Virus record (IMG/VR): IMGVR_UViG_3300045885_000475
Location: 1 to 53,027 of that record
From: a virus
Taxonomy: Duplodnaviria > Caudoviricetes
Reading direction: 5' to 3' (one strand)
DNA length: 53,027 bases
Under the pieces are notes generated by a model. That model had not been told where the DNA came from, made no database searches, and saw only the letters and a list, made by a program, of their open reading frames with translations. Every line of letters begins with the position of its first letter. Positions within the stretch are counted from its first letter, which is position 1. Below, one piece after another: positions 1-13,704 of this stretch. The position numbers and the translations under genes are program-made.

Positions 1-27
1 CTACGGCCTCGTGACGACGGCGGCGGG
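1..27. repeat. Terminal direct repeat (circular-assembly overlap), copy 1
   Basis: ctacggcctcgtgacgacggcggcggg is identical to 53001-53027. Confidence 0.95.
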
Positions 28-1378
28 GAGCGGCACCCATCGCAACCTCAGCATCGGAACGAGTGGCGGCAACAAGCACTTGTACTTCCAGGCGAACGGC
101 TCCCAATACTGGCTCGTGTCCGGTTTCGGCGGGCACATTCTCTCCAACTCCGACAACAACTTGGACGTCGGGGCATCGGGCGCGAACCGGGTGCGGACGC
201 TCTACTGTGGCACGTCCGTGGTGATCGGCACCAACCCGGCCACTTCCGGCAACATCCGGCTCGCCAACGGCGCCGGGATCTTCTGGCGCAACGCGGCGAA
301 CACTCAGAACATCCAGGGCATCGCGGTAGGCTCGTCGGATCAGGTGCAGATCGGTGACGGGACGAACGACGCGGGCGGCATCCACTTCTCCACGGCGGGC
401 AACCTTGTAGAGCAGCGGCGCACCACGAATGCCCAAGCCTTCCGCGTCTACAACACGTTCACCGACGCGAGTAATTACGAGCGTGCTATCTTCTCCTGGG
501 GTAGCAACGAGCTTAACATCGGCGTCGAGAAGGCTGGCACCGGAACCGCTCGCCAGATCAACATTGTCACGAATGGTACGGCGCGGTGGAATTACGGGGC
601 CACGTCAGGCCACTACATCGCGAACGCAGACAACACCTACGACATCGGGTTGAGTGGGAATAACCGGCCTCGCACCACCTACATTGCGACGTCGACCATC
701 ATCGGCACCGGCTCCAACTTCGTCACGATCGTTCCGGCGAACGGCGCGAACTCGGCCCTGGTGATTGAGACGGCGACCGCCACCAACAACCTCGGCCACA
801 TCCACATCGCCGGTTCCGCTTCCGCCCAGATCGGCTTCGACCAGACGAACGGCGCGGCTGACAATCAGGTGTGGGATATCCTCGTCTCGTCGGAGCAGTT
901 CAAGTTCCGAGCTGTAAATGACGCTGCATCCGTCGCAACGAACTGGCTGCTTGTCGAGCGCACGGGGACGACGATCGATTCGGTCCAGTTCCCGAACAGC
1001 AATGTCCTGATCGGGACCAGCACGAACCCGTCAGCCGGCGGAGGCAAGGTCCTCGTCCTCGGGGACAACGGCGGCAACCCGACCATGGGCTCGAATACCG
1101 CCGGGTTCTTTGCCAAAGACGTGGCGGGGACCGTAGAGGCGTTTGCCATCGACGAGGGCTCGGTCGCGAACCAGCTGACCTCGCACAACCCCAAGACAGG
1201 GGAGTGGTGGATCAACACCTACTTCCTCGCGGAGAACAAGCACAAGACTTTCCACGTCGAGCGGTTCCTGCGGGACCTGTGCGAGCTGGTCCCCGAGATC
1301 AAAAGCAGGATCAACATCGACAGCTACTGGGAGGTCACGGAGGCCTTCTCTCATCTTGATTCCGAGGTTCTTGTCTAA
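1..1378 (+). CDS. Tail fibre/receptor-binding protein, C-terminal part (gene starts at 51337 and wraps)
   Basis: G/S/T/N-rich beta-type sequence with internal repeats (TFTDASNY; DNxxDxGxSGxNRxRTxY); in frame with the stop-free ORF from 51337 across the junction. Confidence 0.85.
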   Translation, partial: YGLVTTAAGSGTHRNLSIGTSGGNKHLYFQANGSQYWLVSGFGGHILSNSDNNLDVGASGANRVRTLYCGTSVVIGTNPATSGNIRLANGAGIFWRNAANTQNIQGIAVGSSDQVQIGDGTNDAGGIHFSTAGNLVEQRRTTNAQAFRVYNTFTDASNYERAIFSWGSNELNIGVEKAGTGTARQINIVTNGTARWNYGATSGHYIANADNTYDIGLSGNNRPRTTYIATSTIIGTGSNFVTIVPANGANSALVIETATATNNLGHIHIAGSASAQIGFDQTNGAADNQVWDILVSSEQFKFRAVNDAASVATNWLLVERTGTTIDSVQFPNSNVLIGTSTNPSAGGGKVLVLGDNGGNPTMGSNTAGFFAKDVAGTVEAFAIDEGSVANQLTSHNPKTGEWWINTYFLAENKHKTFHVERFLRDLCELVPEIKSRINIDSYWEVTEAFSHLDSEVLV

Positions 1379-1398
1379 CTCTATTTCTTGGAGGAGCC

Positions 1399-1710
1399 AT
1401 GCTGACCGCGTCGGACATGCAGCCGGAAGGGGGCACGCTGGTGATCCAGTTCGGCCCGGATGGGAAAGTCGCCCGAAGCAACTTCAGCGGGAAGGCGCTG
1501 GTGAAGTTGCCCGAGGGCATCGACGCCGTGCGGGCGAAAGCGTACCAGGGGGCGGCGAAGTCGTCGGAATTCGCTCCGCCCTGGAGCGCGGAGTCCCTGG
1601 CGTTCCTGAACACGATCGGACCCAAGCTGAACGCGATCGCCTGCGGGGACGCCGCCAAGAAGCTGAACGCCGAGGCCCAGCAGCCTGAGAGCGGCGGGGA
1701 AACGGTCTAA
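1399..1710 (+). CDS. Hypothetical protein (possible fibre-associated protein)
   Basis: GGAGGAG RBS, phage-like codon usage, directly after the fibre gene. Confidence 0.6.
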   Translation: MLTASDMQPEGGTLVIQFGPDGKVARSNFSGKALVKLPEGIDAVRAKAYQGAAKSSEFAPPWSAESLAFLNTIGPKLNAIACGDAAKKLNAEAQQPESGGETV

Positions 1711-1748
1711 CGAGAGGATTCGAGGATCCCATTTTAGGAGACGGGGAC

Positions 1749-2408
1749 ATGGCCAAGACCGTGGAAGTGACTGCAACGGCGTACGTGTGGAACTGGATCT
1801 TCCCGCGCCTGGCGGCATTCGAGCTCCCGGAATCCCTGGGGGAGGGCGACGGGAAGGACTTCGATGAGATCCAGCGCGCAATCGTGAAGACCGAATGCGC
1901 GGAAGCGGTGAAGGAGTTCAAGGCCTTCTCGCACTACGCCCAGCAGCTCGGGGCGAAGAACAGGGTCATCTTTGGGCACAAGGAGGACTGGAAGGAGACC
2001 GAGTCCCTGCCGGAGGCCTTCGGGGAGGAGAAGTCCCGCAAGAAGAAGCGGAAGGACTTCGAGCACCTCAACCCCGAGAAGTCCTACACCCTCAAGTTCA
2101 ACAAGGATGCGCGCAGCGGCCTGACGTGGTTCTTCCTGACGCTGCTCTCCCCGCCCGTGATGATCGAGCGCATGATCGGGCGGAACGAGAAGCCCGTGCA
2201 GATCCCGTCCCACGACGCGGCCACGCCCATCCAGGCCGAGACTTTCATCTGGCCCATCGTGAAGCAGCTCGGCCGAGAGAAGGCCATGCGCGAAGCCCTC
2301 GGCCTGGACAACTCGCAGAAGAAGCGGGCCTGGGCGGACGACGAGGACGAAGGGGTGCCGGTCCCCACCAAGACCGGCAAGGGAGAGGAGAAGCTGGCCG
2401 AGGTCTAA
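1749..2408 (+). CDS. Hypothetical protein
   Basis: AGGAGACGGGG RBS, 219 aa, typical codon usage. Confidence 0.75.
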   Translation: MAKTVEVTATAYVWNWIFPRLAAFELPESLGEGDGKDFDEIQRAIVKTECAEAVKEFKAFSHYAQQLGAKNRVIFGHKEDWKETESLPEAFGEEKSRKKKRKDFEHLNPEKSYTLKFNKDARSGLTWFFLTLLSPPVMIERMIGRNEKPVQIPSHDAATPIQAETFIWPIVKQLGREKAMREALGLDNSQKKRAWADDEDEGVPVPTKTGKGEEKLAEV

Positions 2409-3083
2409 ATGCGCAACCCCAACATCGCCGGCCGCAAAGAGCTGGTCGCCCATCGCCGATTCGTCACCGGCGTGACGGCGAGCGTGCCGGCCTACAAGGA
2501 GGTCGACCAGGCCGAGAACAAGGAGTGGCTTGTCGACGTCTACATCGGCCCGCTCGAGGACGTCACGCAGAACATCATCCGGGACGTCCCGATCGCGCCC
2601 TACGCGCGCCAGCTGATCGGGGACGTCCGGCAGCCGGTCCTCCTCGAGCGCTCGAAGCAGGGGAAGTACTCGGTGATCGGCCGCTCGAAGGAGCTCCCCG
2701 CCGGCTTCCAGCTCCCGGAGGGATCCATCCTCGAGCCGACGTACCACCGGATCGAGTACAACTACTCGAAGCTCCGGCTCTCCTACGTCGCGGACCTTGA
2801 CTACGAGCTCGAGGCCTGGGGGGCGAAGGAGTGGGAAGATCCCGGCCTTCCCTGGCAGGCCGTCACCGTCTCGAACGCCTTCGGCCGCGCGATCATCGGC
2901 CCTGGGGTGGCCGCCGAGGACCTGGCCCCCTTGGTCGACCCCGTGCCAGTCACCACGACCACCACCAAGCACCTCCTCGTCAAGCCGTTTACCTGGGGGC
3001 CCGGAGGAGATCCGGACGCGCTCGTCTGGGGGACGACCCCCTGGGGGGCCATGAACCAGAAGACCCTCGAACTCGTGGAATAG
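2409..3083 (+). CDS. Hypothetical protein, probably a virion/baseplate component
   Basis: Abuts the upstream stop; 224 aa; lies in the tail gene cluster. Confidence 0.65.
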   Translation: MRNPNIAGRKELVAHRRFVTGVTASVPAYKEVDQAENKEWLVDVYIGPLEDVTQNIIRDVPIAPYARQLIGDVRQPVLLERSKQGKYSVIGRSKELPAGFQLPEGSILEPTYHRIEYNYSKLRLSYVADLDYELEAWGAKEWEDPGLPWQAVTVSNAFGRAIIGPGVAAEDLAPLVDPVPVTTTTTKHLLVKPFTWGPGGDPDALVWGTTPWGAMNQKTLELVE

Positions 3084-3093
3084 GAGACCGTCC

Positions 3094-4116
3094 ATGCCGC
3101 TCAGCCTGACGCCGATCCCCGCCGGAAGCACGAGCTACCCCGCGATCGTGCAGGCGAACTGGGACGCGATCGAGTCTTTCTGCAACCAGCTCGCCTCCCA
3201 GATCCTGGCGGCCGCCGGGGACGGCGCCGATCTCATCCTGGACGTCTTCGACCGGCCGGGCCTGGTCGGATCGACGAGCTACGTGCTCGACCTCGAGAAC
3301 TACGCGGGCGGCGCCGAGATCGACATCGGCCACCGTCCGACCGCCAACCCGGCGCTCGGGGAGCAGGACACGTCGATCGCGTGGGGGATCTTCGGGGGAC
3401 AGCGGGCCCGCGTGGTCCAGAACGAGGACGTCACCCTGAACGCCGGCGGGATCATCGCCGGCCTCCCGAAGACGATCTACGTCGGGATCCCGTCCGACGG
3501 CACCGCCCAGCTCTTCGAGGACAATACGACGCCGAACGTCCTCTACATCTACTCGATGTGCTGGAACGGGTTCTCGCTCACCGAGTTCAAGCGCCTGGCG
3601 CCCATCCTGCCGGGGTACTCGCTCCTGCAGCGGGTGGTTGCGGCGCCACGGGAGGTCCGGGCGAGCGATGAAGTGACCGACTTCCTCGAGCACGACGAGG
3701 CCCGCACGATCCTGGTCACCCCGGGCGACGCGGCCGACAACGAAATCGGGGTCCACGGCTCGCGCGAGATCCTGGGCTTCTTCGTCCACTTCCCGCAAGG
3801 GGACGAGGAGGGCGGGCTCTGGGCGCCGGCGGGCGAGGACAACAAGCTGACCCTCAAGATCCAGTGCGAGGGCGAGGACTGGACGGAGGAGTTCGAACTT
3901 GACGCCTCGATCGACGGTGGCAACTTCGTCCAGGTCGCCCTCCACGCCGACGTGGCCGACAAGCGGTACGCCACCGAGGCCATCCGGTTCAAGCTGGTCA
4001 AGGTCTCGATCGGCGGGGACGTCGTCTCCGCCGGCAGCTTCGACTGGGGCTACTACTGGCGGCCCATGATCGGGACGGAGATCCCGGTCGACACGAACGA
4101 GATGGACCTGATCTAG
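3094..4116 (+). CDS. Acidic putative virion structural protein
   Basis: AGGAGAC RBS; 340 aa, acidic and beta-rich; tail context. Confidence 0.65.
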   Translation: MPLSLTPIPAGSTSYPAIVQANWDAIESFCNQLASQILAAAGDGADLILDVFDRPGLVGSTSYVLDLENYAGGAEIDIGHRPTANPALGEQDTSIAWGIFGGQRARVVQNEDVTLNAGGIIAGLPKTIYVGIPSDGTAQLFEDNTTPNVLYIYSMCWNGFSLTEFKRLAPILPGYSLLQRVVAAPREVRASDEVTDFLEHDEARTILVTPGDAADNEIGVHGSREILGFFVHFPQGDEEGGLWAPAGEDNKLTLKIQCEGEDWTEEFELDASIDGGNFVQVALHADVADKRYATEAIRFKLVKVSIGGDVVSAGSFDWGYYWRPMIGTEIPVDTNEMDLI

Positions 4117-4147
4117 CGGACGGACTTCGGAGAGGAGGGTAGAGGCC

Positions 4148-4474
4148 GTGGACGAAGAGACCAAGAGGTACCTGGAGGCGACGCAGAAGTCCGTGGAGAC
4201 GGGATTCAGCCGTCTCGAGGGGAAGGTGGACGCCGTCGCCAAGCAGCTCCACGATCACGTCGTCGAGAGCGCGGTCCGCTGGAAGGAGGTGGACGCGCGG
4301 GCTCGCTCCGCGCATCACCGGATGGATGCCCACCTGACCGAACACCAGCGGACCGATGAGCGGCGGTTCCAATCTCGCCTCCAGGGAAGAGGCATGGTCA
4401 TCGCCGCCTGGGTCGCGATCGGGACGACGATCGTGACGCTCGTCGTGACGATCATCCTGGCCTTCTACAAGTAG
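4148..4474 (+). CDS. Coiled-coil protein with one C-terminal TM helix (holin/XhlA-like lysis candidate)
   Basis: Heptad-like N-terminal region, then MVIAAWVAIGTTIVTLVVTIILAFYK. Confidence 0.55.
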   Translation: MDEETKRYLEATQKSVETGFSRLEGKVDAVAKQLHDHVVESAVRWKEVDARARSAHHRMDAHLTEHQRTDERRFQSRLQGRGMVIAAWVAIGTTIVTLVVTIILAFYK

Positions 4475-4505
4475 CGGATTTCAGGGGAAGAAAGGAGACG
4501 AGGTT

Positions 4506-5006
4506 ATGGCAGCCACCGTCGAAATCGACGAGGCCAACGGCGCGGGAGAAACCCTCTCGCACAACGTGGCGAACTGGAACTTCGGGGCGAATGACGAGAA
4601 GGAGGTCGTCCCCGCCACCTATCCCATCGTTGCCGGACAGAACAGCTACACCAAGTACTGGAAGCTGCACGTCACCGCGATGGGCGGGTCGAACAAGATC
4701 GACAACCTCCAGGTCTGGAAGTCCGCCGGCGCCTACGTCACGGGCGAAGGAATCCAGTGCTCGCTCCGGACCTCGAGCTACGCGGCGCCGACCTACGCGA
4801 CGCCGACCCAGTCGACCTACACGGATCAGGCGATGCCGACGGCCGATCCCGCGGCCGCGAATTACGGCATCGGCGGGTCCCTCTCGGGCTCGCTTACCGG
4901 GGCTGGGTCGAGTGACTATCTCAAGGCGCAGCTGCAGACGACGGGCTCGACGCCTCCCGGCAACGTCAACCAGAAGACCTTCACGATCCAGTACGACGAG
5001 CAGTAG
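4506..5006 (+). CDS. Putative virion structural protein
   Basis: AAAGGAGACG RBS; G/T/S-rich beta protein ending ...FTIQYDEQ. Confidence 0.65.
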   Translation: MAATVEIDEANGAGETLSHNVANWNFGANDEKEVVPATYPIVAGQNSYTKYWKLHVTAMGGSNKIDNLQVWKSAGAYVTGEGIQCSLRTSSYAAPTYATPTQSTYTDQAMPTADPAAANYGIGGSLSGSLTGAGSSDYLKAQLQTTGSTPPGNVNQKTFTIQYDEQ

Positions 5007-5022
5007 GAGGGCCTCATGGCCA

Positions 5023-5520
5023 ATGACCATGACGGTCGCTGATCTTGCCTGGGCTGCTGGCCTCATAGACGGTGAGGGATGCTTCTCGGTCGGGGCCTCG
5101 CCAACTAGGTCCTCGATCAGCACTCGGCTGCGTCTCCGTGTTGTACTGTCGGAACTCCCGTCGAATCTCGATGCACTTAGAAAGCTTCAGTCGATGTTCG
5201 GAGGAACCATTCGCAGCAGACCGAGGCAAAAGTCCTGGAGGACAGGCGCTCGGGACCAGTGGGAATGGTGCCTGAGCGGTGATCGCTCAGTCGACGCAGC
5301 AGCACTTCTTTCCCGGTACCTGGTGATCAAGAAACAGACCGCAAGGCTGTACCTCCAGATCGCCACGCTCAGGAAACTTCCCGTCGTCGACCTCAGGGAA
5401 CTTCTAACCTTGAGAGACCAGCTCAATTATCGCCCAGCCACCCGCCATCCGAACTACTTGACGGCCGAGGTTCTCTTGAAAGGGAGGGCAATCCAATGCC
5501 CGAGATCGATCGGCATGTAG
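5023..5520 (+). CDS. Free-standing LAGLIDADG homing endonuclease
   Basis: LAWAAGLIDGEGCF motif, FGG and YLVIKK elements; atypical codon usage; overlaps the next gene. Confidence 0.85.
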   Translation: MTMTVADLAWAAGLIDGEGCFSVGASPTRSSISTRLRLRVVLSELPSNLDALRKLQSMFGGTIRSRPRQKSWRTGARDQWEWCLSGDRSVDAAALLSRYLVIKKQTARLYLQIATLRKLPVVDLRELLTLRDQLNYRPATRHPNYLTAEVLLKGRAIQCPRSIGM

Positions 5521-5948
5521 CTCCCAAAGAGCCCCGACCCTGGACCCCTCACTGGTGGGCCAAGATCGGGCCCGTCGTCCACGAGGGCGACGGGATCCTG
5601 GCGCCGGAGGTCTTCAAGCAGAAGGGGCTGCTCGAGAGCTTCGAGGCCTTCATCGAGCCTCGCCAGCTCCGGATCCGCGTCGACCTCCGGACCGGGAACA
5701 TCTACTTCAACAACCGCCTGGAGGTGCGGCCTGACCTGGCGCCGGGCACGCCGCTTCGGCTCATCTGGTTCCGGAGGATGCGGAAGGAAGTCCATCAATT
5801 CGACAAGAGCCTGACCATCCCCTTCGAGACTCGCTTCTACGGAATCGGATGGCAGGCGACTGTCGGCGGCCGAAATCTCAAGCTCGGCTTCATGATCTCG
5901 AGCGACGGCCGCCTCGAGCCGGGCCTGCCGGAGAACGCTCCGAGCTAG
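5496..5948 (+). CDS. Hypothetical protein
   Basis: GGGAGG RBS; 150 aa with LIWFRR and YGIGWQ motifs. Confidence 0.7.
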   Translation: MPEIDRHVAPKEPRPWTPHWWAKIGPVVHEGDGILAPEVFKQKGLLESFEAFIEPRQLRIRVDLRTGNIYFNNRLEVRPDLAPGTPLRLIWFRRMRKEVHQFDKSLTIPFETRFYGIGWQATVGGRNLKLGFMISSDGRLEPGLPENAPS

Positions 5949-5951
5949 ACG

Positions 5952-7733
5952 ATGGCCGTCTTCGGCTACGACACCATCGGCGGCTCGACCGCGTCGATCG
6001 CGGCCAACAACAAGCGCTTCTGGAAGTTCGTCGCGCCGGTGGGAATCGACCAGGTCGACGCGATCTCGGTCTACATGGACCGGAGCGCCACGGGCAGCGG
6101 TTACGCGATCGACGGCGCCATCTATGCCGACAGCTCCGGGTCGCCCGGCGCCCTGATCGCGAACAGCGCTATCCAGATCCACTCGAACATCGCCCGCAAC
6201 TCCCCTGCGTGGTACTCGGTGAACTACGGCACCAAGCCGACCCTCACTCCCGGAAACACCTATTGGATCGGCGTCCTCGCGACGAAGGCCGCCATCACCT
6301 ACCACGACGCGGGAGGCACGAACCAGCAAGCCTCGCGCGCCGATACTCTCCCCTTTGACGACCCATTCGGAGCCAGCCCCACCTTCGCCAACAACAAGGG
6401 CTCGTGCTACCTCACGTACACGATCGTCCCGCAATCCACCACCAAGAATTCTGATGCCCGGGTCAAGACCACCCAGTCCGTCACCAAGAATTCCGACGCG
6501 CGCGTTCTCACGACCCAGCAGACGAGCAAGACCTCGGACGCGCGAGTCAAGGTCACCCAGAGCCTCACGAAGACATCCGATGCCACGGTGGAGGCCGGCG
6601 CCCAGACCAACGAGATCCAGAAGCTCTCGGACGCCAGGATCCTCACGACGCAGTCCACCTCGAAAACCTCCGATGCCCGGGTGAAGATCACCCAATCGGC
6701 CGAGAAGGTCTCGGACGCGCGCGTCCTCAAGACGCAGGAGCTGACCAAATCCTCGGACGCCGCGGTCTTCGCGACAGTCGAGGCCTCGCGGCTCTCCGAC
6801 GCGAGGGTCCTCAAGACCGGGGAGCTCGCCGTCGCCTCCGACGCCCGGGTCCTCCTGACCCAGAGTGCGAGCAAGACTTCCGATGCGCGCGTCCTCACGA
6901 CCGCCACCCTGGCCCCCACTTCGGACGCGCGGATCCTGACGACGCAGCAGCTCGCCAAGCTGAGCGATGCAGCCGTGTTCCGGACCATGTCGCTCGAAGT
7001 CGCATCCGACGCTCGGGTCCAGGGCGATGTCGATACCTTCGAGATCCTCAAGACCTCCGACGCCCGAGTGCTACTGACCCAGGGGCTCTCGCGCACCTCC
7101 GAAGGTCGGATCCTAGCGGCTCAGGCCCTCGAGATCGATTCGGCCGCGCGGGTCAAGAAGACGGGCCAGCTCGCGCAGGTCTCCGACGCGGCCGTGAAAC
7201 TCGTAGGCAGCATCGAGATCTTCTCTCAGGCGCGCGTGATCCTGGAGGGCGGGGCCTGGCTGGTGAAGCGAACTCTCCTCGACGGCTCGATCGTCGAGGT
7301 GCCAATCCGATACCCGGTCGTCAACGTCCAGGTCCGGACCCGGCTGACCCGGCGCGAGATCTCGTCATTCCGGATCCGGAATTACATCCTGTCGGCCAAC
7401 TTCCACGATCTCCAGGAGCGCCGACGAAACCTGACAGTCCGTCTGCTCCTCGAGGACGGCTCGCCCGTCAACCTCGAGGGTGCCGCGGCCCAGTTCATCC
7501 TCGAGAACTACGATTTCACGCAGGTCTTGAGCGCGCCCGCCGAGGTCCTGAGCGCGGCCGCGGGGGCCGTGCGCTACTGGTACCGACCGGGAGACATCCC
7601 GAAGGAGGTGCGATACACGGCGAAGAGGAAGAAGTTGGGCCAGTGGCTGGCCGGCCACTTCCGCGTCGACTGGCCCGACCAGACGTTCCTGGAGTGGCCG
7701 CTCGATCGACGGTTCGACGTTCGGATCCATTAG
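5952..7733 (+). CDS. Fibre-like virion protein: N-terminal beta domain, 14-aa SDAR repeats, C-terminal BppU_N-like domain
   Basis: About 19 xxKxSDARVxxTQx repeats; C-terminal LLEDGSPVNLEG...GAVRYWY resembles BppU N-terminal anchor domains. Confidence 0.7.
   Translation: MAVFGYDTIGGSTASIAANNKRFWKFVAPVGIDQVDAISVYMDRSATGSGYAIDGAIYADSSGSPGALIANSAIQIHSNIARNSPAWYSVNYGTKPTLTPGNTYWIGVLATKAAITYHDAGGTNQQASRADTLPFDDPFGASPTFANNKGSCYLTYTIVPQSTTKNSDARVKTTQSVTKNSDARVLTTQQTSKTSDARVKVTQSLTKTSDATVEAGAQTNEIQKLSDARILTTQSTSKTSDARVKITQSAEKVSDARVLKTQELTKSSDAAVFATVEASRLSDARVLKTGELAVASDARVLLTQSASKTSDARVLTTATLAPTSDARILTTQQLAKLSDAAVFRTMSLEVASDARVQGDVDTFEILKTSDARVLLTQGLSRTSEGRILAAQALEIDSAARVKKTGQLAQVSDAAVKLVGSIEIFSQARVILEGGAWLVKRTLLDGSIVEVPIRYPVVNVQVRTRLTRREISSFRIRNYILSANFHDLQERRRNLTVRLLLEDGSPVNLEGAAAQFILENYDFTQVLSAPAEVLSAAAGAVRYWYRPGDIPKEVRYTAKRKKLGQWLAGHFRVDWPDQTFLEWPLDRRFDVRIH
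6436..7242 (+). repeat. Degenerate 42-bp tandem repeat encoding SDAR units
   Basis: Recurring TCx GAY GCx CGx GTC codons with a 14-aa period. Confidence 0.9.
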
Positions 7734-7755
7734 GGGAAGAAAGGAGAGTGGGAGT

Positions 7756-8466
7756 ATGCGCATTCTCATCGTGTTGTTAGGTGTAGTCGCCGGCGGCGCC
7801 GCCGGCTGCGTGACGTCGGGGACGCACACGGAGGGCGACCGCCAGGTCAACACGCAGACCTTCGGAGCCGCGGAGGTCGCAAGGTCCTCCATGGAGGAAG
7901 CCCAGAAGGCGCTCCCGGAGGGCTCGACCGGCTGGACCATGCTCGGCGTCGGGATCCGGGCCGCGGTCGACATCCAGAAGAACGCCCAGCAGCAGGAAGA
8001 GGTCCACGGCCCGCCGAAGGAGCCCAAGCCCTACACGGCCGAGAACGCGGCCGCGGCGCGGGATCTCTCGACAAAGGAGCACGCCGAAAGCGGCCTGACG
8101 AAGATCCTCGTCGGCGCCGGCGGGATCGTAGCCGGCTTGGCCGGCGCCTGGTTCGGGATGCCTTGGCTCGCCCAGTTCTTTCCCAAACTGGCGGGGAAGT
8201 GGGGCGTGATCGGGCAGACCGGGATCCAGATCGTCACCGCCCTGCGGAAGAAGTCCGAGGAATCGGGCGGAAGAATCGGAACGAAGGAGCTCCTGGCGAT
8301 CGCCAAGGAGTACAACGTCACCGCAGGCGTGCAGGACTTGGTGAAGAAGGAGGCGTCCGCCCTCGAGGCGAAGCTGGGCTACACGCCTACCGTGAAGCTC
8401 GAGGAGCCCGCCGCGGAGCCTGCGGCTTCGCCTCCAGCTCCACCCCCCGTTCCCGTCGGTACGTAG
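7756..8466 (+). CDS. Lipoprotein with an internal TM segment (spanin-like candidate)
   Basis: Signal peptide with lipobox-like AAG-C; hydrophobic ILVGAGGIVAGLAGAWFGMPWLAQFF; last gene of the late block. Confidence 0.55.
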   Translation: MRILIVLLGVVAGGAAGCVTSGTHTEGDRQVNTQTFGAAEVARSSMEEAQKALPEGSTGWTMLGVGIRAAVDIQKNAQQQEEVHGPPKEPKPYTAENAAAARDLSTKEHAESGLTKILVGAGGIVAGLAGAWFGMPWLAQFFPKLAGKWGVIGQTGIQIVTALRKKSEESGGRIGTKELLAIAKEYNVTAGVQDLVKKEASALEAKLGYTPTVKLEEPAAEPAASPPAPPPVPVGT

Positions 8467-8477
8467 ACCCGTCTCGG

Positions 8478-8522
8478 CGGCCCGTCCCGTGTGCAGACGT
8501 CTGCAGCGGGGCGGGCCGTTTC
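8478..8522. terminator. Long hairpin between convergent genes, containing palindrome site A
   Basis: cggcccgtcccg...cggggcgggccg stem enclosing TGCAGACGTCTGCA, followed by TTT. Confidence 0.6.
8491..8506. promoter_or_regulatory. 16-bp palindrome site A (GTGCAGACGTCTGCAG)
   Basis: Perfect 14-bp core; one of 7 dispersed copies. Confidence 0.75.
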
Positions 8523-8973
8523 ACTTCTGGAACCGCAGGCGCCAGATCGGGGCGTCGTCGACGGGCTGCCCCTCCGCGATCGCGAGCAGCTCGTAGTCCC
8601 CCGGCGCGTCGACCTCGAGGTGCCCCTCGACGAAGCCCGGGAAGGACTCCGAGCCGTCGCGGGGCTGCCCGGGCACCTTCCCCGAGATCTCGGCGACGAC
8701 GGCCCCCCGCGAGGAGAGCAGGCGGACCGCCACGCCGAACTCGTGCTGCCCCTCCTCAATGCCCTCCAGGAGGAAGACCGCGGCGATCGGGACGTGCGTC
8801 GCCGGCGGCCGCCAGGGGAGCGGATCCAGGTAGAGGTTCACGGCGTGGTGGGTGCCGTTGGCCTGGTGGACCAGCCGCTCGCAGGCCATGAGCCAGGTGA
8901 TCCGCACGCCGGCGGATGGTCGCTCGAGCCGGCGCCGGCTGTCAACGAAAGGGACGAATGGCAGAAATGGCAA
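8521..8973 (-). CDS. DUF6941-like small beta protein (true start probably at VRITWLMACE)
   Basis: RITWLMACE...DPLP...PGDYEL pattern; similar to 42693-43154. Confidence 0.55.
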   Translation of the reverse strand: MPFLPFVPFVDSRRRLERPSAGVRITWLMACERLVHQANGTHHAVNLYLDPLPWRPPATHVPIAAVFLLEGIEEGQHEFGVAVRLLSSRGAVVAEISGKVPGQPRDGSESFPGFVEGHLEVDAPGDYELLAIAEGQPVDDAPIWRLRFQK

Positions 8974-9077: not shown

Positions 9078-9467
9078 ATGGAAGTCGTCAGGCGCAAGAT
9101 CGAGGCCGGGGCGAAGTGGTCGTTGTCGTACCTCAAGGTGGCGGCCGAGGAAGGCCGAAAGATCCTCACGCAGGACGTGCAGTATGACCACGCGGTCGAC
9201 CAGGTGGAGCTGCTGGCCTGCGAGGACGACCCGACGCACCCCAAGGCCCTCCTCGAGGTGCAGCAGCACGGCGACTTCTACGAGCTTAAGGAAAAAGGCG
9301 GGGTGCTGCGGAAGATCAACCTCCGGGTCTACTTCATCCTGGTGGACAGGCCGACGAAGACCCTGTGGGTGATCGGGTGCTACAAGAAGGAAGACGAAGG
9401 GCAGACGCCCAGGCAGATCGTGATCAAGATGAAGACGCGCGCGAAATATGTGAGGGACAGGCTGTAA
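9078..9467 (+). CDS. RelE/HigB-like (Gp49-type) toxin
   Basis: FYELK...LRVYF...LWVIGCYKK...QTP pattern typical of the RelE/Gp49 fold; upstream of an HTH gene. Confidence 0.7.
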   Translation: MEVVRRKIEAGAKWSLSYLKVAAEEGRKILTQDVQYDHAVDQVELLACEDDPTHPKALLEVQQHGDFYELKEKGGVLRKINLRVYFILVDRPTKTLWVIGCYKKEDEGQTPRQIVIKMKTRAKYVRDRL

Positions 9468-9474
9468 GGGGGCG

Positions 9475-9975
9475 GTGGACCAAGTGCAGTACGTGGGAGG
9501 AGATATGAGCCTCATGAAGGTGGACTCGGAGCGAGTGGTGCAGCTCGCAAAGATGGAGGAGATGGTGCTCGCCATCCTCCTCGATAGGATCGCGAAGCTG
9601 CCGAAGGAGGGCCAGGAGGACCTCGCGGAGTTGATGGACCTCTTCAGCAAGAGCACCACGAAGAAGGAGAGGGAGGAGATCCTGGAGTCGATGAAAGAGC
9701 TGCTCCAGCCGTCGTTGATCGGCGAGCTGGTCCAGGGTCCGATGCCGAAGTCGGGCACGAAGGACCTGGAGAACCGCGCCGCGTACCTGGGGCAGAAGAT
9801 CAAGGAGCTGCGCGCGAAGAAGAGCATGACCCAGGAGGACCTGGCCGAGCTCTCGGGGATCCCGCAGAGCTACATCAGCCGGCTGGAGGCGGGCCAGCAC
9901 AGCCCGTCGCACGCGACGCTGGAGAAGATCGCCCAGGCGCTGGGCGTCGACGTCCACCAGATCGACTACGAATAG
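9475..9975 (+). CDS. XRE-family HTH protein (HigA-like antitoxin or repressor)
   Basis: IKELRAKKSMTQEDLAELSGIPQSYISRLEAG...LEKIAQALGV. Confidence 0.85.
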   Translation: MDQVQYVGGDMSLMKVDSERVVQLAKMEEMVLAILLDRIAKLPKEGQEDLAELMDLFSKSTTKKEREEILESMKELLQPSLIGELVQGPMPKSGTKDLENRAAYLGQKIKELRAKKSMTQEDLAELSGIPQSYISRLEAGQHSPSHATLEKIAQALGVDVHQIDYE

Positions 9976-9990
9976 TCGCACGAGGCGGGA

Positions 9991-10026
9991 AAGAAAGGCC
10001 CCGGTGATGAGCCGGGGCTTTTTTTA
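9991..10026. terminator. Bidirectional intrinsic terminator
   Basis: A-rich 5' flank, GCCCCGG-N7-CCGGGGC stem, T7 tail; between convergent genes. Confidence 0.85.
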
Positions 10027-10920
10027 TGCCCGCGGGTGCGCTCGCCGGAGGACCTCCCGGAGCCGGCCCAGGGCGACGTGCGTGTACCGCTGGGTGCTCG
10101 TGATCGACTTCTGCCCCAGGAACTCCTGGACCTCCCGGAGGTTGGCGCCCCGCTCCAGGAGGTGCGTCGCGATCGAGTGGCGGAACATGTGGGGGTGCGC
10201 CGGCCCCTCCACGCCGGCGCGCGCGGCCGCCTTCACCACGACGTCGCGGAAGGGCGTGTAGCTGATCCGCGTGCCGCGGCTCGAGATGAAGAGCGCCTGC
10301 TCGTGCTCGCGGCCGCGGCGGTGCAGGATCTTGGCGCGCTCGGGGAGCCAGGCGGCGATCGCGTCGAGCGCCGGCCGAGTGAGCTGGAGGAGGCCCTCCT
10401 TCCTTGGCTTCTGGACGACGGTGGCCAGCCCCGTCTCGAACGACAGGCGGTCGAGGTCGATCCGCCGAACCTCACGCTCGCGGCCGCCGGTCGCGTAGAG
10501 CGCCTCGAGGATGGCGCGGTTCCTCAGGTTGTGGGCGCCGCCGATCACGCGGGCGACCTGGTCCTCCGTCCAGTAGTCCGGGAGCTGCTCCTCGAGCTTG
10601 ATCGGATCCAGGTCGTCGCAGGGGTTCGCCGGCACGAGCCCCTCGCGCTTCAGGTGGTGATAGAAGCAGCGGACGGCGACGATCCCGTCCTTGATGGTCT
10701 TCGAGGTCTTCTCCTCCTGGCGCTGGTGCAGGATCCAGCGCTCAAGGAACCGGAAGTCCACGGCGAGCGTGTCGACGCCCGTGAAGGCGAGGTAGGCGCA
10801 GAACGCTTTCAGCTTGGACCCATAGACCCGGATGGTGTCCGGCGCGAAGTTGCGCGCCAAGAGGTACCGCCGCCAGCTCTCGACCAACGCCGAGAGCATG
10901 GCGGACCGAGCTTCCGCCAA
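10024..10920 (-). CDS. XerC/D-like tyrosine recombinase
   Basis: YATGGR, HPHMFRHSIATHLLERGANLREVQEFLGQ, TQRYTHV; 298 aa with no arm-binding domain. Confidence 0.9.
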   Translation of the reverse strand: MAEARSAMLSALVESWRRYLLARNFAPDTIRVYGSKLKAFCAYLAFTGVDTLAVDFRFLERWILHQRQEEKTSKTIKDGIVAVRCFYHHLKREGLVPANPCDDLDPIKLEEQLPDYWTEDQVARVIGGAHNLRNRAILEALYATGGREREVRRIDLDRLSFETGLATVVQKPRKEGLLQLTRPALDAIAAWLPERAKILHRRGREHEQALFISSRGTRISYTPFRDVVVKAAARAGVEGPAHPHMFRHSIATHLLERGANLREVQEFLGQKSITSTQRYTHVALGRLREVLRRAHPRA

Positions 10921-11059
10921 AAATCCCCAGCTGCTGCCCGCACCCTACCCTTTTCCCCTGCGGGCGAACCACTCTCCACGTTGCAAGCCACGGAAGCCCC
11001 GGTCGCCTGATCTACGTTCAACGCATTTTGGAAATTTCGGTTCGGGAAAATAATTTCTC

Positions 11060-11087
11060 TTGACACACTCGAGCCATGCGGTAGTCT
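11060..11087 (+). promoter_or_regulatory. Early-operon sigma70 promoter
   Basis: TTGACA-N16-TAGTCT, preceded by an AT-rich UP-like tract. Confidence 0.65.
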
Positions 11088-11094
11088 CATCACC

Positions 11095-11353
11095 GGAGAC
11101 AAGCGCGTGATGATTCAGAGCCCGGCGACTCCTGCCCGCCCACCGGTCGTAGCGCTTGTCTCCAACACGCCTGTGGCCGGTGGGGCAGGGCTCGGCGGGC
11201 TCGATTTGGCGGGTCAGGCTTCCCATCAGGCGCGGCCGGAATAGTTGAAAGTCTCGGACTTCGACTAGTCGGCCCCTGATGGTGAAGCCTCCCGCAACGG
11301 GAGGCAGCAGTGGTAGTGCGAGACGGGGAGGGGGCTTCCAAGAAATCCCCCTC
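11095..11353 (+). ncRNA. Structured leader / putative regulatory RNA
   Basis: 12-bp complementary pair 11095-11106/11152-11163; long stems 11118-11202 and 11209-11295; alternative hairpin 11287-11305; hairpin 11328-11353. Confidence 0.6.
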
Positions 11354-11696
11354 TGAGGGCCCATGTGACCTCCGACCCACGGAGGCCCTGGTCGGGCCCT
11401 TTCAATCTTCGGGCCCGGTCATCCGGGTGGTCTGCAGGCGCTGCGGCGCCGTCCTGAGCGAAGGGGAGCCCGGGGCGGTCGAGCAGCTCGTGGTGTGCGG
11501 CCGCTGCGACCGGGACACCAGGCCGGCGCAGCAGCGCGAGTACTTCCCGGCCGTCCCCCAGGAGCCCCGCCGGTCGATCGAGGAGCAGACGTTCCTCGCG
11601 TACCTCCGGGGCCTGGGCCTCGAGGCCCTGCCGGTGATCCTCCTCGTCCCCACGGCCCTCCTCTGGGCGGTCAGCGCCCGGGCGGTGCTGGCGTGA
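11310..11696 (+). CDS. Small Zn-ribbon protein with a C-terminal hydrophobic segment (start uncertain, likely downstream of the leader)
   Basis: CRRC...CGRC; LPVILLVPTALLWAV; stop overlaps the next start. Confidence 0.5.
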   Translation: MVVRDGEGASKKSPSEGPCDLRPTEALVGPFQSSGPVIRVVCRRCGAVLSEGEPGAVEQLVVCGRCDRDTRPAQQREYFPAVPQEPRRSIEEQTFLAYLRGLGLEALPVILLVPTALLWAVSARAVLA

Positions 11697-12061
11697 GCGA
11701 GCACACTCCTGGCCCCTGGACCTGGCAGCGCGGCGAGAAGTGGCACCGGCTCCACGGCAAGGGTCCCGACGGCAAGCCGGTGACGATTCTCCGGGCGGCT
11801 CAGAACAACGGGCCGGTCATGACTCCGGCCAGGCGGTCCGACCAGGACCTCATCGCGGCCGCGCCCGATCTCCTCGCCGCCCTCCAGAGGTACGTCGACG
11901 CCTACCAGGGCTACATGGATGGACGCGAGAACGCGAGCGAGATCGCCGCCGCCGAACTCCAGGCTCGGCGCGCGATCGCCAAGACGGCGCCCCCCCCCAC
12001 GGGCTCCCTGACCTCCGCGGGCCCCTCCTTCCTCCCCCGGCCGAGTGGAGGTGACGCGTGA
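11693..12061 (+). CDS. Hypothetical phage protein (HTPGPW family)
   Basis: HTPGPW...LIAAAPDLLAAL motif common in phage early genes. Confidence 0.75.
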   Translation: MSEHTPGPWTWQRGEKWHRLHGKGPDGKPVTILRAAQNNGPVMTPARRSDQDLIAAAPDLLAALQRYVDAYQGYMDGRENASEIAAAELQARRAIAKTAPPPTGSLTSAGPSFLPRPSGGDA

Positions 12062-12237: not shown

Positions 12238-12422
12238 GCAACCTCCCGCGCGAGATCCGGATCGTCTGGGACTGCCTCTGCGGCGCCCATTGGTCGACGA
12301 CCTTCGACCTCAAGGCGCGCCCGCATGGCCGGACCCACCAGTGCTCCCTCTGCAAGCGGACGCTCGAGATCCACCGGCCGCGCCTGGTCGACCTCACGCC
12401 GCCGGCGGGAGGTGCCCGGTGA
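12234..12422 (+). CDS. Small Zn-finger protein
   Basis: CLC...CSLC; coupled start and stop. Confidence 0.6.
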   Translation: MSNLPREIRIVWDCLCGAHWSTTFDLKARPHGRTHQCSLCKRTLEIHRPRLVDLTPPAGGAR

Positions 12423-13240
12423 CGGAGAAGCTGATCGAAGTCCGCCAGTCCGCGCTCAACGACTTCGAGCTCTGCGGCGAGATGTTCCGCCGGAAGCACA
12501 TCGAGAAGGAGGCGGCCCCGCCTGGGACAGCCGCGCTCCGCGGCGGCGCCGTCCACGTCGGCGCGCAGAAGAACCACGAGCACAAGAAGGCCCAGGGCGC
12601 CGACCTCCCGAAGAAGGAGATCATCGAGATCGCCGTCGCCGGCCTCGAGGAGAAGAAGGCGAAGGAGGGCTTCCGGCTCACGCCCGAGGAGATGGGCGCC
12701 GGCGTCCGGACCACCCTGGCGCGGACGGTCGAGTCGGTGACGACGCTCACCGGCCTCTACGCGGACAAGGTCGCGCCGGCGATGAAGCCCGACCTGATCG
12801 AGCAGGAGGCGAAGTTCATCCTGCCGAACGGCGTGGTCTTCGGCGGCCGTCTGGACCTCTCGACCTCCGACAACCGAGTGAAGGACCTCAAGACCTCCGG
12901 GCGATCGAAGAGCCAAAAGGACGCCGACGACTCGCTCCAGGGGACGCAGTACTGGCTGCTTTTCACGAAGCTCAAAGGTCACGAGCCCGCGGGCTTCGAC
13001 CTTGAGGTCCTGGTCGACCTCAAGACCCCCAAGCACCAGCACATCGAGACGCACCGGACCCGGAAGGACGTCGAGGTCCTCATCAACCGCGCCAACGTGA
13101 TGCTCAAGTCCAACCAGCTCGGGATCTTCGCGCCGGCCGCGGTCGGCTCCTGGATTTGCACGCCCAAGTGGTGCCCCTTCTGGGATTCCTGCCCCTTCGT
13201 GAACTCGGAGCGGATGAAGGCCGCGGAGGCGCAGGAATGA
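12419..13240 (+). CDS. PD-(D/E)xK exonuclease, Cas4/RecB/AddB-like with putative Fe-S cysteines
   Basis: SALNDFELC, GxAVH, GRLD...DLKTS, Q...Y, CxxxxCxFxxxC. Confidence 0.85.
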   Translation: MTEKLIEVRQSALNDFELCGEMFRRKHIEKEAAPPGTAALRGGAVHVGAQKNHEHKKAQGADLPKKEIIEIAVAGLEEKKAKEGFRLTPEEMGAGVRTTLARTVESVTTLTGLYADKVAPAMKPDLIEQEAKFILPNGVVFGGRLDLSTSDNRVKDLKTSGRSKSQKDADDSLQGTQYWLLFTKLKGHEPAGFDLEVLVDLKTPKHQHIETHRTRKDVEVLINRANVMLKSNQLGIFAPAAVGSWICTPKWCPFWDSCPFVNSERMKAAEAQE

Positions 13241-13704
13241 TCGGTCAACGCTTTGGCCGCTGGGAGGTCCTCGCCTTCGCCGGAGTGACGGCGTACCACG
13301 CGCGCGTCTGGGCGTGTCGCTGCGACTGCGGCCGCGAGGGAAAGGTCCTGGAGCAGAACCTGAAGCGAGGAAAGAGCGCCCGCTGCAAGGCGTGCCACAA
13401 CAAGGCGGCCGCGACTCGGCACGGCGGCTCGACCACACCCGAATACCTGATCTGGGGGACGATGATCCAGCGCTGCACGAACCCCAACGTGCGGCGCTGG
13501 GTCGACTACGGCGGCCGCGGCATCCAGGTCTGCGACCGCTGGCGCAACTCCTTCGAGGCTTTCTTCCAGGATCTCGGCCCCCGCCCGAGTCCCGAGTACT
13601 CCATCGACCGCATCGACAACGACGGGAACTACGAGCCCGGCAATGTGCGCTGGGCTACGGCAGAAGAACAGGCCAACAATCGCCGGCCTCGGCAGCCGGC
13701 CTGA
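13237..13704 (+). CDS. HNH homing endonuclease
   Basis: CRCDCG; YGGRGIQVCDRW; SIDRIDNDGNYEPGNVRWAT. Confidence 0.9.
   Translation: MIGQRFGRWEVLAFAGVTAYHARVWACRCDCGREGKVLEQNLKRGKSARCKACHNKAAATRHGGSTTPEYLIWGTMIQRCTNPNVRRWVDYGGRGIQVCDRWRNSFEAFFQDLGPRPSPEYSIDRIDNDGNYEPGNVRWATAEEQANNRRPRQPA

Follow-up and report, generated by a model that had tools for sequence, protein, structure and literature searches.

What does a temperate phage keep between its integrase gene and its first early genes when that gap encodes no protein? The question arises in a 53,027-bp stretch of viral DNA, the IMG/VR record IMGVR_UViG_3300045885_000475 (taken at full length and called the window), which is a whole virus with direct terminal repeats and is temperate, with a G+C content of 61-73%. 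To one side of the gap is the integrase gene, which points left, and to the other are the first of the rightward genes; an earlier note had described its content as a structured leader with competing helices ahead of the early operon, a description borne out by the fold, by the third-position GC and by compensatory changes in relatives. Positions 11095-11309 are non-coding, and we read them as the ~215-nt 5′ leader of the rightward operon that carries nearly all phage genes. With even confidence, we propose that this plus-strand leader is an RNA switch, in which a helix between its 5′ tail and a hairpin loop would control a terminator-like hairpin, and a second hairpin spanning the phage attachment site (attP) would control translation.

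The tail-loop helix in the window and its relatives

The leader follows a putative early promoter on the plus strand, TTGACA-N16-TAGTCT (11060-11087), with its hexamers at 11060-11065 and 11082-11087 as previously noticed. A consensus promoter scan made no call at 11060-11087, because TAGTCT agrees with TATAAT at only 3 of 6 positions. An equivalent promoter geometry is found in relatives from IMG/VR and genome collections, designated L### for loci and G### for genomes, namely in L087, in L106 (TTGACA-N16-TATACT), in L108 (TTGACT-N16-CATAAT) and in the prophage of G654 (TTGATA-N16-TAGTCT).

Seven nucleotides after the -10 hexamer, and no more than a few bases from where transcription is predicted to start, lies a 12-nt tail, segment A (GGAGACAAGCGC, 11095-11106, plus strand). 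Its perfect reverse complement, segment A′ (GCGCTTGTCTCC, 11152-11163), is located in the upper part of hairpin H1, as the earlier note had seen; the duplex of both has an energy of -22.6 kcal/mol. H1 is an 85-nt terminator-like hairpin (11118-11202) with the base GAGCCCG/CGGGCTC, followed by GATTTGG. The long stem proposed for these positions is present, with arms of 20 nt that are 85% complementary, a minimum free energy of -58.9 kcal/mol and a z score of -5.77. Further downstream on the same strand are the 87-nt hairpin H2 (11209-11295), the 3′ strand of which (11284-11295) includes an anti-Shine-Dalgarno segment (11287-11294), and a small hairpin, GCCTCCCG-CAA-CGGGAGGC (11287-11305), which sequesters the Shine-Dalgarno sequence GGGAGG (11299-11304). 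The plus strand of 11088-11360 folds at -146.5 kcal/mol (z -5.12), a value matched by 0 of 200 shuffles, compared to -129.6 kcal/mol (z -4.61) for the minus strand.

No coding frame was detected by third-position GC from ~10920 to ~11310, so that the region does not read as an ordinary coding sequence. A 45-residue open reading frame (ORF) at 11107-11244 was rejected as a gene, for it has no third-position GC signal and relatives show insertions and deletions there. A repeat family or mobile element was likewise rejected, as the hairpins and the 12-mer are each single-copy in the window.

The 12-nt match is the longest complement between the head of the transcript and its next 120 nt, a length reached by 0 of 5000 shuffles. 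Perfect 12-nt inverted repeats with a gap of 25-110 occur twice in the 53-kb window, and such a repeat alone is not unique. A:A′ carries weight because three related records keep a tail/loop complement at the same place with different letters.

These relatives had to be sought with alignments. Blastn against GenBank phages gave no match to the window, tblastn with the terminase and the integrase reached no phage at 60% identity or more, so that only distant ones came up and no cultured phage is close, and single-protein scans of viral contigs found no relative. An alignment search with close integrase homologues recovered one IMG/VR record (L002, the record of L087, L109 and L119), whose integrase is 54% identical; searches with exonuclease alignments added four further records, and a wider alignment gave 13 loci, five known and eight new (L122 and L128 are identical over the stretches read, as are L123 and L124). 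Scanning genome contigs with the integrase alignment brought up nothing but XerC/D-like genes of chromosomes, none above 42% identity. In the window, L087, L106, L108 and the G654 prophage, the sequence can be read across from the integrase to the early genes; L107, a record 30% complete, and L110, a provirus trimmed at gene borders, lack this junction.

The tail-loop helix is present at four of these five junctions, the G654 prophage being without it. In L087, L106 and L108, 5-7 bases separate the -10 hexamer of a sigma-70-like promoter from a 13-nt segment whose complement is found high in a long hairpin ~20 bases on. The letters of segment A are GGAGACAAGCGC in the window, CGTGCCCCAAGCG in L087, GATGAGCAAGGGC in L106 and GTGACACACGCGA in L108, and each pairs with the top of its own H1. 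All 12-13 positions of A differ between these phages, whose neighbouring proteins are 61-85% identical, and the pairing is kept in L087, L106 and L108 by fully compensatory changes, a covariation of the two strands. The helix of L106 contains one G.U pair on the plus strand, corresponding to C.A on the other strand. The H1 base is GAGCCCG/CGGGCTC in the window, L087 and L108, and GAACCCC/GGGGTTC in L106, with two pairs changed on both sides.

The same layout recurs at other genomic places in two more distant records. In L126, a search for perfect inverted repeats found a 12-mer and a 12-bp stem with A′ filling the loop. In L122 (identical to L128), a 13-mer lies inside a 15-bp stem that precedes a six-T run, a Shine-Dalgarno sequence and an ATG. 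A tolerant tail/loop scanner gave many 10-nt chance matches and missed known cases, and only its L122 match was used; neither this scanner nor the perfect-repeat search found a tail-loop element in L121, L123/L124, L125 or L127. When the downstream 120 nt were shuffled as a chance control, the observed complement was reached 0 times in 5000 in five elements and 14 times in 5000 in L106. A begins 5-8 nt past the -10 hexamer in five of the six elements, and all six H1 hairpins have z scores of -5.2 to -6.9. Given the leader-switch reading, we regard the tail-loop helix as quite probably an RNA helix on the plus strand.

The ribosome-binding site and the attachment site

The first early gene (11310-11696, plus strand, coding frame by third-position GC) most likely starts at GTG 11310 and not further down, because GGGAGG lies six bases upstream and a Shine-Dalgarno sequence with a GTG or ATG in the same position recurs in L087, L106, L108 and the G654 prophage, and because residue 39 of the window protein falls on residue 39 of its L106 counterpart in their alignment. 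The predicted product is a small Cys-rich protein with a hydrophobic C-terminus and has a homologous ORF in L106 (E 4e-9); Pfam and PHROG gave no family for the part encoded by 11427-11696. A Shine-Dalgarno hairpin precedes the start codon also in L087, L106, L108 and G654.

The competition that had been postulated between H2 and 11287-11305 is real, and its object is the ribosome-binding site, as the first gene has its Shine-Dalgarno sequence within 11298-11305. The two hairpins exclude each other because both use 11287-11295: the segment 11287-11294 pairs with either 11298-11305 or the 5′ strand of H2, as it does in L087. The mean unpaired probability of the Shine-Dalgarno sequence in the window is 0.59 in the full leader versus 0.00 in an RNA starting at the H2 tip, and in L087 it is 0.77 in the full leader versus 0.20 without the 5′ half. 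A third hairpin (11328-11353, plus strand), which had been counted as part of the leader, does exist but lies inside the coding sequence, given the start at GTG 11310, and is probably coding. A consensus scan placed a minus-strand terminator-like site at this hairpin (11359-11347), and L106 has a similar hairpin 20-45 nt into its first gene (~4918-4955).

The hairpin H2 is of further interest owing to a prophage of a sister lineage. Among 401 genomes from the phylum of G006 (Gemmataceae; holds L033), one close prophage was found, in the Planctomycetota genome G654, with an exonuclease 74% identical to that of the window (E 1e-149). It is bounded at both ends by a 34-bp direct repeat that covers the first part of a tRNA. 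Read in the direction of the early genes, a complete tRNA-Val(gac), as reverse complement, adjoins the Shine-Dalgarno hairpin and the first gene, and this end has no promoter, A or H1. The other end, ~50 kb off, carries the integrase gene and the TTGATA-N16-TAGTCT promoter, which faces away from the integrase and is followed after ~45 nt by the second copy of the repeat. In the free phage L106, whose integrase is 54% identical to that of G654, all 36 of 36 bases of the attP core (4781-4816) are found between H1 and the Shine-Dalgarno hairpin. Because of the G654 junctions and this position of the L106 core, we are all but certain that attP lies within the leader in the L106 lineage. Integration there parts the promoter and the 5′ leader, in L106 including A and H1, from the early genes and leaves them beside the integrase gene.

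The target of L106 and G654 is the 5′ part of tRNA-Val(gac) (L106 4781-4816; L134, located on G654:C3, minus strand; L135; L136 1503-1577). On the phage side next to the tRNA start, the tRNA strand reads as having a TATAAT box, possibly a substitute promoter for tRNA-Val(gac); integration into the 5′ part of a tRNA gene together with an apparent substitute promoter would be an unusual way of keeping a target gene alive. In the lysogen of G654, the displaced host tRNA promoter region, as it reads, is directed at the integrase gene. The longest complement of the attP arms is 9 nt, reached by 47 of 3000 shuffles.

In the window, the position equivalent to the L106 attP falls in H2, a part that varies among relatives from 36 to about 150 nt in length. 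A 21-nt block at the H2 tip (11242-11262, plus strand) is kept at 17 of 21 positions in L087, though the surrounding fold differs. Searched as a pattern in viral contigs other than the window's own record, it gave two stretches, one in L087 and the other in coding DNA of low GC, which we regard as a chance match. The equivalent position and the kept block suggest that attP of the window phage lies in H2, with 11242-11262 as a candidate core for its integrase type; we give this placement an even chance.

How the leader might act

The folding order of H1 suggests how the 5′ half could work. In an RNA ending at A′, minimum-energy prefix folds pair all A bases with A′ in six of six elements (12 of 12 bases in the window), and with the full H1 present, the nested A:A′ fold is 5-11 kcal/mol worse than H1 in five of six. 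A:A′ and the H1 stem share no bases and are interleaved in pseudoknot order, an arrangement beyond the scoring of the folding program. We propose that during transcription A would pair with A′ before the 3′ strand of H1 exists, and that the interleaved helix would hinder or reshape the terminator-like H1 so that the polymerase reads on. If A were occupied or removed, H1 would fold and stop or destabilise the transcript. Judged by sequence, H1 looks like an intrinsic terminator in L122, where a 15-bp GC stem is followed by TTTTTTGTT, a Shine-Dalgarno sequence and ATG, and in L106, with GATTTTTTG after H1; the likeness is less in L108 and L126, weak in the window and absent in L087. Even granted the leader-switch reading, control of H1 read-through by A:A′ is a tentative proposal, to which we lean slightly less than to its opposite. 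In the 3′ half, formation of H2 would take up the anti-Shine-Dalgarno strand and leave the ribosome-binding site open, and integration would split H2, upon which the anti-Shine-Dalgarno strand would close the site.

A leader hairpin whose loop pairs nearer the 5′ end recalls the RNAs P4 CI, P1/P7 C4 and N15 CA. These are stable hairpin RNAs encoded in leaders of early or anti-repressor operons, with a loop complementary to a 5′-ward site in the same transcript; they are released from the leader by RNase P and other processing and give immunity in trans, their pairing letters vary between hetero-immune relatives, and they control termination or translation downstream. The window leader resembles them in the leader hairpin, in the loop pairing nearer the 5′ end and in its phage-specific letters. 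It differs from C4, CI and CA in the single complement found, which joins the very 5′ end to the loop of a terminator-like hairpin; no second target further down was found in the window, whereas the loops of that family match sites on either side in their own transcript (a1/b1 and a2/b2; seqA and seqC). The suggested relation to the C4 family, which we take to be RF01695, did not hold up: Rfam gave no match in the whole window at gathering score and no real one in 10900-11450 at E≤10, where only miRNA, IRES and snoRNA chance matches appeared, and the leader is thus not a member of the C4/CI family. Rfam also gave nothing in the relatives' loci or in the L126 and L122 elements; the best sub-threshold match was Leu_leader on L126, which was rejected because it scored 19.3 bits (E 0.099) where the cut-off is 50. 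The pairing of the loop with GGAGAC ribosome sites, which the earlier note had considered, is not conserved, the relatives' loops being unrelated and that of L087 being G-rich.

By analogy with P4-type RNA immunity, free H1 RNA from a resident prophage could occupy the A segment of an incoming leader of the same specificity. Such action in trans seems unlikely to us, given the leader-switch reading, at somewhat above one chance in four. More speculative, and in our view improbable, is lysogeny without a classical repressor: integration at the leader attP would disconnect the whole lytic operon from the one strong promoter it has and shut its ribosome-binding site, and the remnant of A and H1 made beside the integrase gene would be a phage-specific immunity RNA that captures the 5′ tails of same-type incoming leaders and forces termination at H1. 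If this were true, the variable 12-mer would be an RNA immunity code. If the leader-switch reading itself holds, phage-specific helix letters would be the signature expected of a specificity determinant such as an immunity or incompatibility code, and the leader would represent an uncatalogued leader-RNA motif, defined by a helix of phage-specific letters between 5′ tail and apical loop. For the sister lineage, attP inside the leader ties the physical state of the genome to both transcription and translation of the lytic operon. To our knowledge, almost nothing is known of phage regulation in Planctomycetota, the phylum of the sister prophage.

Several observations weigh against the leader switch. 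At the level of the fold, MAFFT and RNAalifold on the four H1 sequences gave 13 pairs only, four of them with changes on both sides, a weak consensus that reflects the poor alignment. A:A′ is not a classical antiterminator, because it shares no bases with the H1 stem, and that a 12-bp helix should hinder a stem of ~26 bp is a topological argument of our own. A terminator scan made no call at H1, the T run after H1 is only GATTTGG in the window and is missing in L087, and it is from sequence that we predict where the transcript starts, that it ends at H1 and whether it is processed. The ribosome-binding-site switch is predicted in only two of four leaders, the unpaired probabilities being 0.23 versus 0.20 in L106 and 0.99 versus 1.00 in L108. 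No copy of A occurs elsewhere in the window at 0-1 mismatch, and at ≤2 mismatches there are 10 against 10.7 expected. The strand preference is weak, with the two strands of H1 within 1.3 kcal/mol of each other in L106, L108 and L126. The prophage of G654, a close relative by its exonuclease, has the promoter and no A/H1 module, which is therefore dispensable. As for integration, the integrase of the window is only 33% identical to that of L106, and its own attP was not located. No bacterial attachment site for the window type was found in the 401 genomes, where the core pattern has two matches in one genome, each within coding DNA, a rate close to that of the control pattern; nor do these genomes contain an integrase at E≤1e-75. 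A Myxococcota-side sample of 401 genomes gave one weak exonuclease match.

The alternative that survives best retains the plus-strand RNA and removes the switch. In a leader acting in cis only, the helix would bury the 5′ end and make a compact 5′ untranslated region (UTR) that resists nucleases or folds correctly, with neither termination control nor action in trans, and its letters would change by neutral compensatory drift. The location of A at the very 5′ end in five of six elements would suit this role, as would the pseudoknot strand order, which lets both helices coexist, the weak T run after H1 in the window and L087, the second target not found in the window, and the G654 prophage that manages without the module. 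L122 is difficult to accommodate, since its hairpin is an unmistakable intrinsic terminator between promoter and gene and needs a means of read-through. Drift also fits poorly with the change of all 12-13 A positions while the H1 base is unchanged in three of four phages with neighbouring proteins 61-85% identical. We thus rate a cis-only leader as improbable, at about one chance in five.

Less probable still is a functional minus strand, in which H1 would lie in the 5′ UTR of the integrase mRNA and attenuate transcription entering past attP, or would form a two-way insulator. The entering promoter would be that of the phage in the free state and that of the host in the lysogen, and the A/A′ match would serve that RNA. 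In G654, the host tRNA-Val promoter region appears to point through the 34-bp repeat toward the integrase gene; T-rich runs, the reverse of A-rich linkers, follow the minus-strand H1 in L106, L108 and L087, and the minus strand folds well too (z -3.0 to -7.9). There is also a precedent in the stem-loops of the int 5′ UTR of ICEKp1, which are reported to attenuate read-through from a tRNA promoter (PMC13023037). However, A begins at the predicted plus-strand transcript start, the G.U of L106 would become C.A, the L122 module sits before a replication-type gene, and the L126 record, 94% complete, contains the element and no tyrosine integrase. In addition, the minus strand of H1 loses 7-10 kcal/mol against the plus strand both in the window (-58.9 versus -52.1 kcal/mol, minus z -3.87) and in L087 (-61.1 versus -50.9 kcal/mol). 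The plus strand is favoured because of this stability in the window and L087, because the G.U of L106 fits, and because the L126 element occurs without a tyrosine integrase.

The least probable of the three, to which we give only about one chance in ten, places the function in the DNA: in the region around the transcript start, A and A′ would form an inverted pair bound by a repressor or recombination protein specific to the phage, and the H2 palindrome would provide core-type sites of the integrase. A does overlap +1, a usual position of an operator, operators of hetero-immune phages also change together, and at the H2 tip, which is kept in L087, two imperfectly inverted halves enclose a short spacer. 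In addition, an inverted repeat does span a promoter in L123 (identical to L124): at 3903-4040, a perfect 14-bp inverted repeat has its copies 110 bp apart, with the right copy filling the spacer of TTGACA-N17-TACAAA. By its appearance this pair is a DNA operator, in which it differs from the tail-loop elements. Against protein-binding sites stands the location of A′ in the conserved top of a hairpin in six of six elements; none of the 12-13-mers is itself palindromic, their centre-to-centre spacing of 55-69 bp shows no helical phasing, the genome has no further copies, and the XRE-type cassette of the window is missing at the same place in L087. A retron non-coding RNA was rejected, as the element is not flanked by its inverted repeat and 0 of 10 downstream genes scanned match a reverse-transcriptase family, and so was an integron attC or CTX-type folded attP, as the integrase is short (298 aa) and no R/L box pattern was seen, no dedicated search having been made.

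The plus-strand leader switch has partial counterparts among known elements. In countertranscript attenuation of pT181 and pIP501, a complementary RNA on the 5′ part of the nascent leader decides on a downstream terminator; the regulator there comes from the opposite strand and the pre-emptor overlaps a terminator arm, in both of which the window leader differs. Read-through across joined ends takes place in Tn916. State-dependent transcription across the attachment site is described for ICEKp1, ICEclc and ICEEc1, together with stem-loops in the int 5′ UTR of ICEKp1 that attenuate read-through from the tRNA promoter (PMC13023037). The likeness lies in excision and integration setting which promoter is joined to which gene, in a tRNA promoter that faces the integrase in the integrated state and, for ICEKp1, in attenuating UTR stem-loops next to attP. 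The regulated gene in those systems is int and the elements are conjugative, whereas here, in L106 and G654 only, the promoter of a whole lytic operon is cut off, and the target is the 5′ part of the tRNA gene.

Mycobacteriophages such as BPs have an integration-dependent immunity (PMC3694055; PMC4557955) that is similar in that attP lies inside a control element beside int and integration itself alters the switch. There, attP is inside the repressor gene and integration changes a protein, whereas here it would be inside a non-coding RNA leader. From the Gifsy-1 prophage, one promoter gives rise to the short terminated RNA IsrK and to a read-through mRNA (PMC4825925); the short form is reported to pair in trans with the long form and to alter its translation via alternative structures, a similar logic. 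In IsrK, however, the short RNA activates, and IsrK bears no sequence or structural relation to the window leader, of which two isoforms were not seen. The logic hitherto described for conjugative elements and mycobacteriophage repressor genes would here be extended to tailed phages. A literature search found no direct report of a phage with attP in a leader, although such a report may exist in print.

Gene setting and minor observations

Third-position GC places nearly all genes of the window on the plus strand, the minus-strand exceptions being the integrase gene (10024-10920) and one gene at 8521-8973. The integrase is a tyrosine recombinase of XerC/D type (Pfam Phage_integrase E 1.9e-34, Phage_int_SAM_1 E 3.3e-11; phrog_1 integrase); its likely start is ATG 10899, the listed ORF opens at TTG 10920, and the database copy P0001 has 291 residues. 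Behind the first early gene, the plus strand encodes a phrog_1273 protein (11693-12061), two small ORFs, a PD-(D/E)XK exonuclease (12419-13240) and an HNH endonuclease (13237-13704). Nearly all genes (11310-53027 and 1-8466) run rightward from the promoter at 11060, for which reason the leader may gate the entire lytic programme. No tRNA or tmRNA is present in the window, and ARAGORN found none in the phage loci of its relatives.

A two-gene cassette to the left of the integrase gene (9078-9975) encodes a protein of no family and an XRE-type helix-turn-helix protein with a long N-terminal part. As L087 has no such cassette at the same place, it is unlikely to be the core repressor of the lineage. 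Six soil-metagenome DNA runs contain the stretch or part of it, and no RNA run is among the runs listed as containing it. Contigs from four of these runs were compared, and those covering the leader are identical to the window, so that they provide no leader variants, ends or strand.

The pattern AGAGCCCG...GCGCTTG...CGGGCTC matched 18 stretches, one of which is a true relative. The other 17 were rejected: twelve are near-identical, unrelated hairpins of another phage group, and five are singles taken as chance, most of them in coding-looking DNA. The twelve IMG/VR loci (L089-L092, L094, L095, L097, L100-L103 and L105) have a ~100-nt hairpin, AGAGCCCGC...GCGGGCTCT, beside a leftward gene start, which is probably unrelated to the leader and matched the search pattern only.

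Between the integrase start and the promoter, a 33-nt block (window 10947-10980, L106 4461-4492) is 85% identical in the two phages, although their integrases are only 33% identical, and a related block is present in L087. In L126 (1670-1725, 5072-5332), H1 is directly followed by an acceptor stem and T-arm resembling a half tRNA, on which neither ARAGORN nor Rfam made a call. Among the genes of this phage is one for a CsrA-like protein, and in its H1 loop stands the motif ACGGAUG, which presumably resembles a CsrA binding site.

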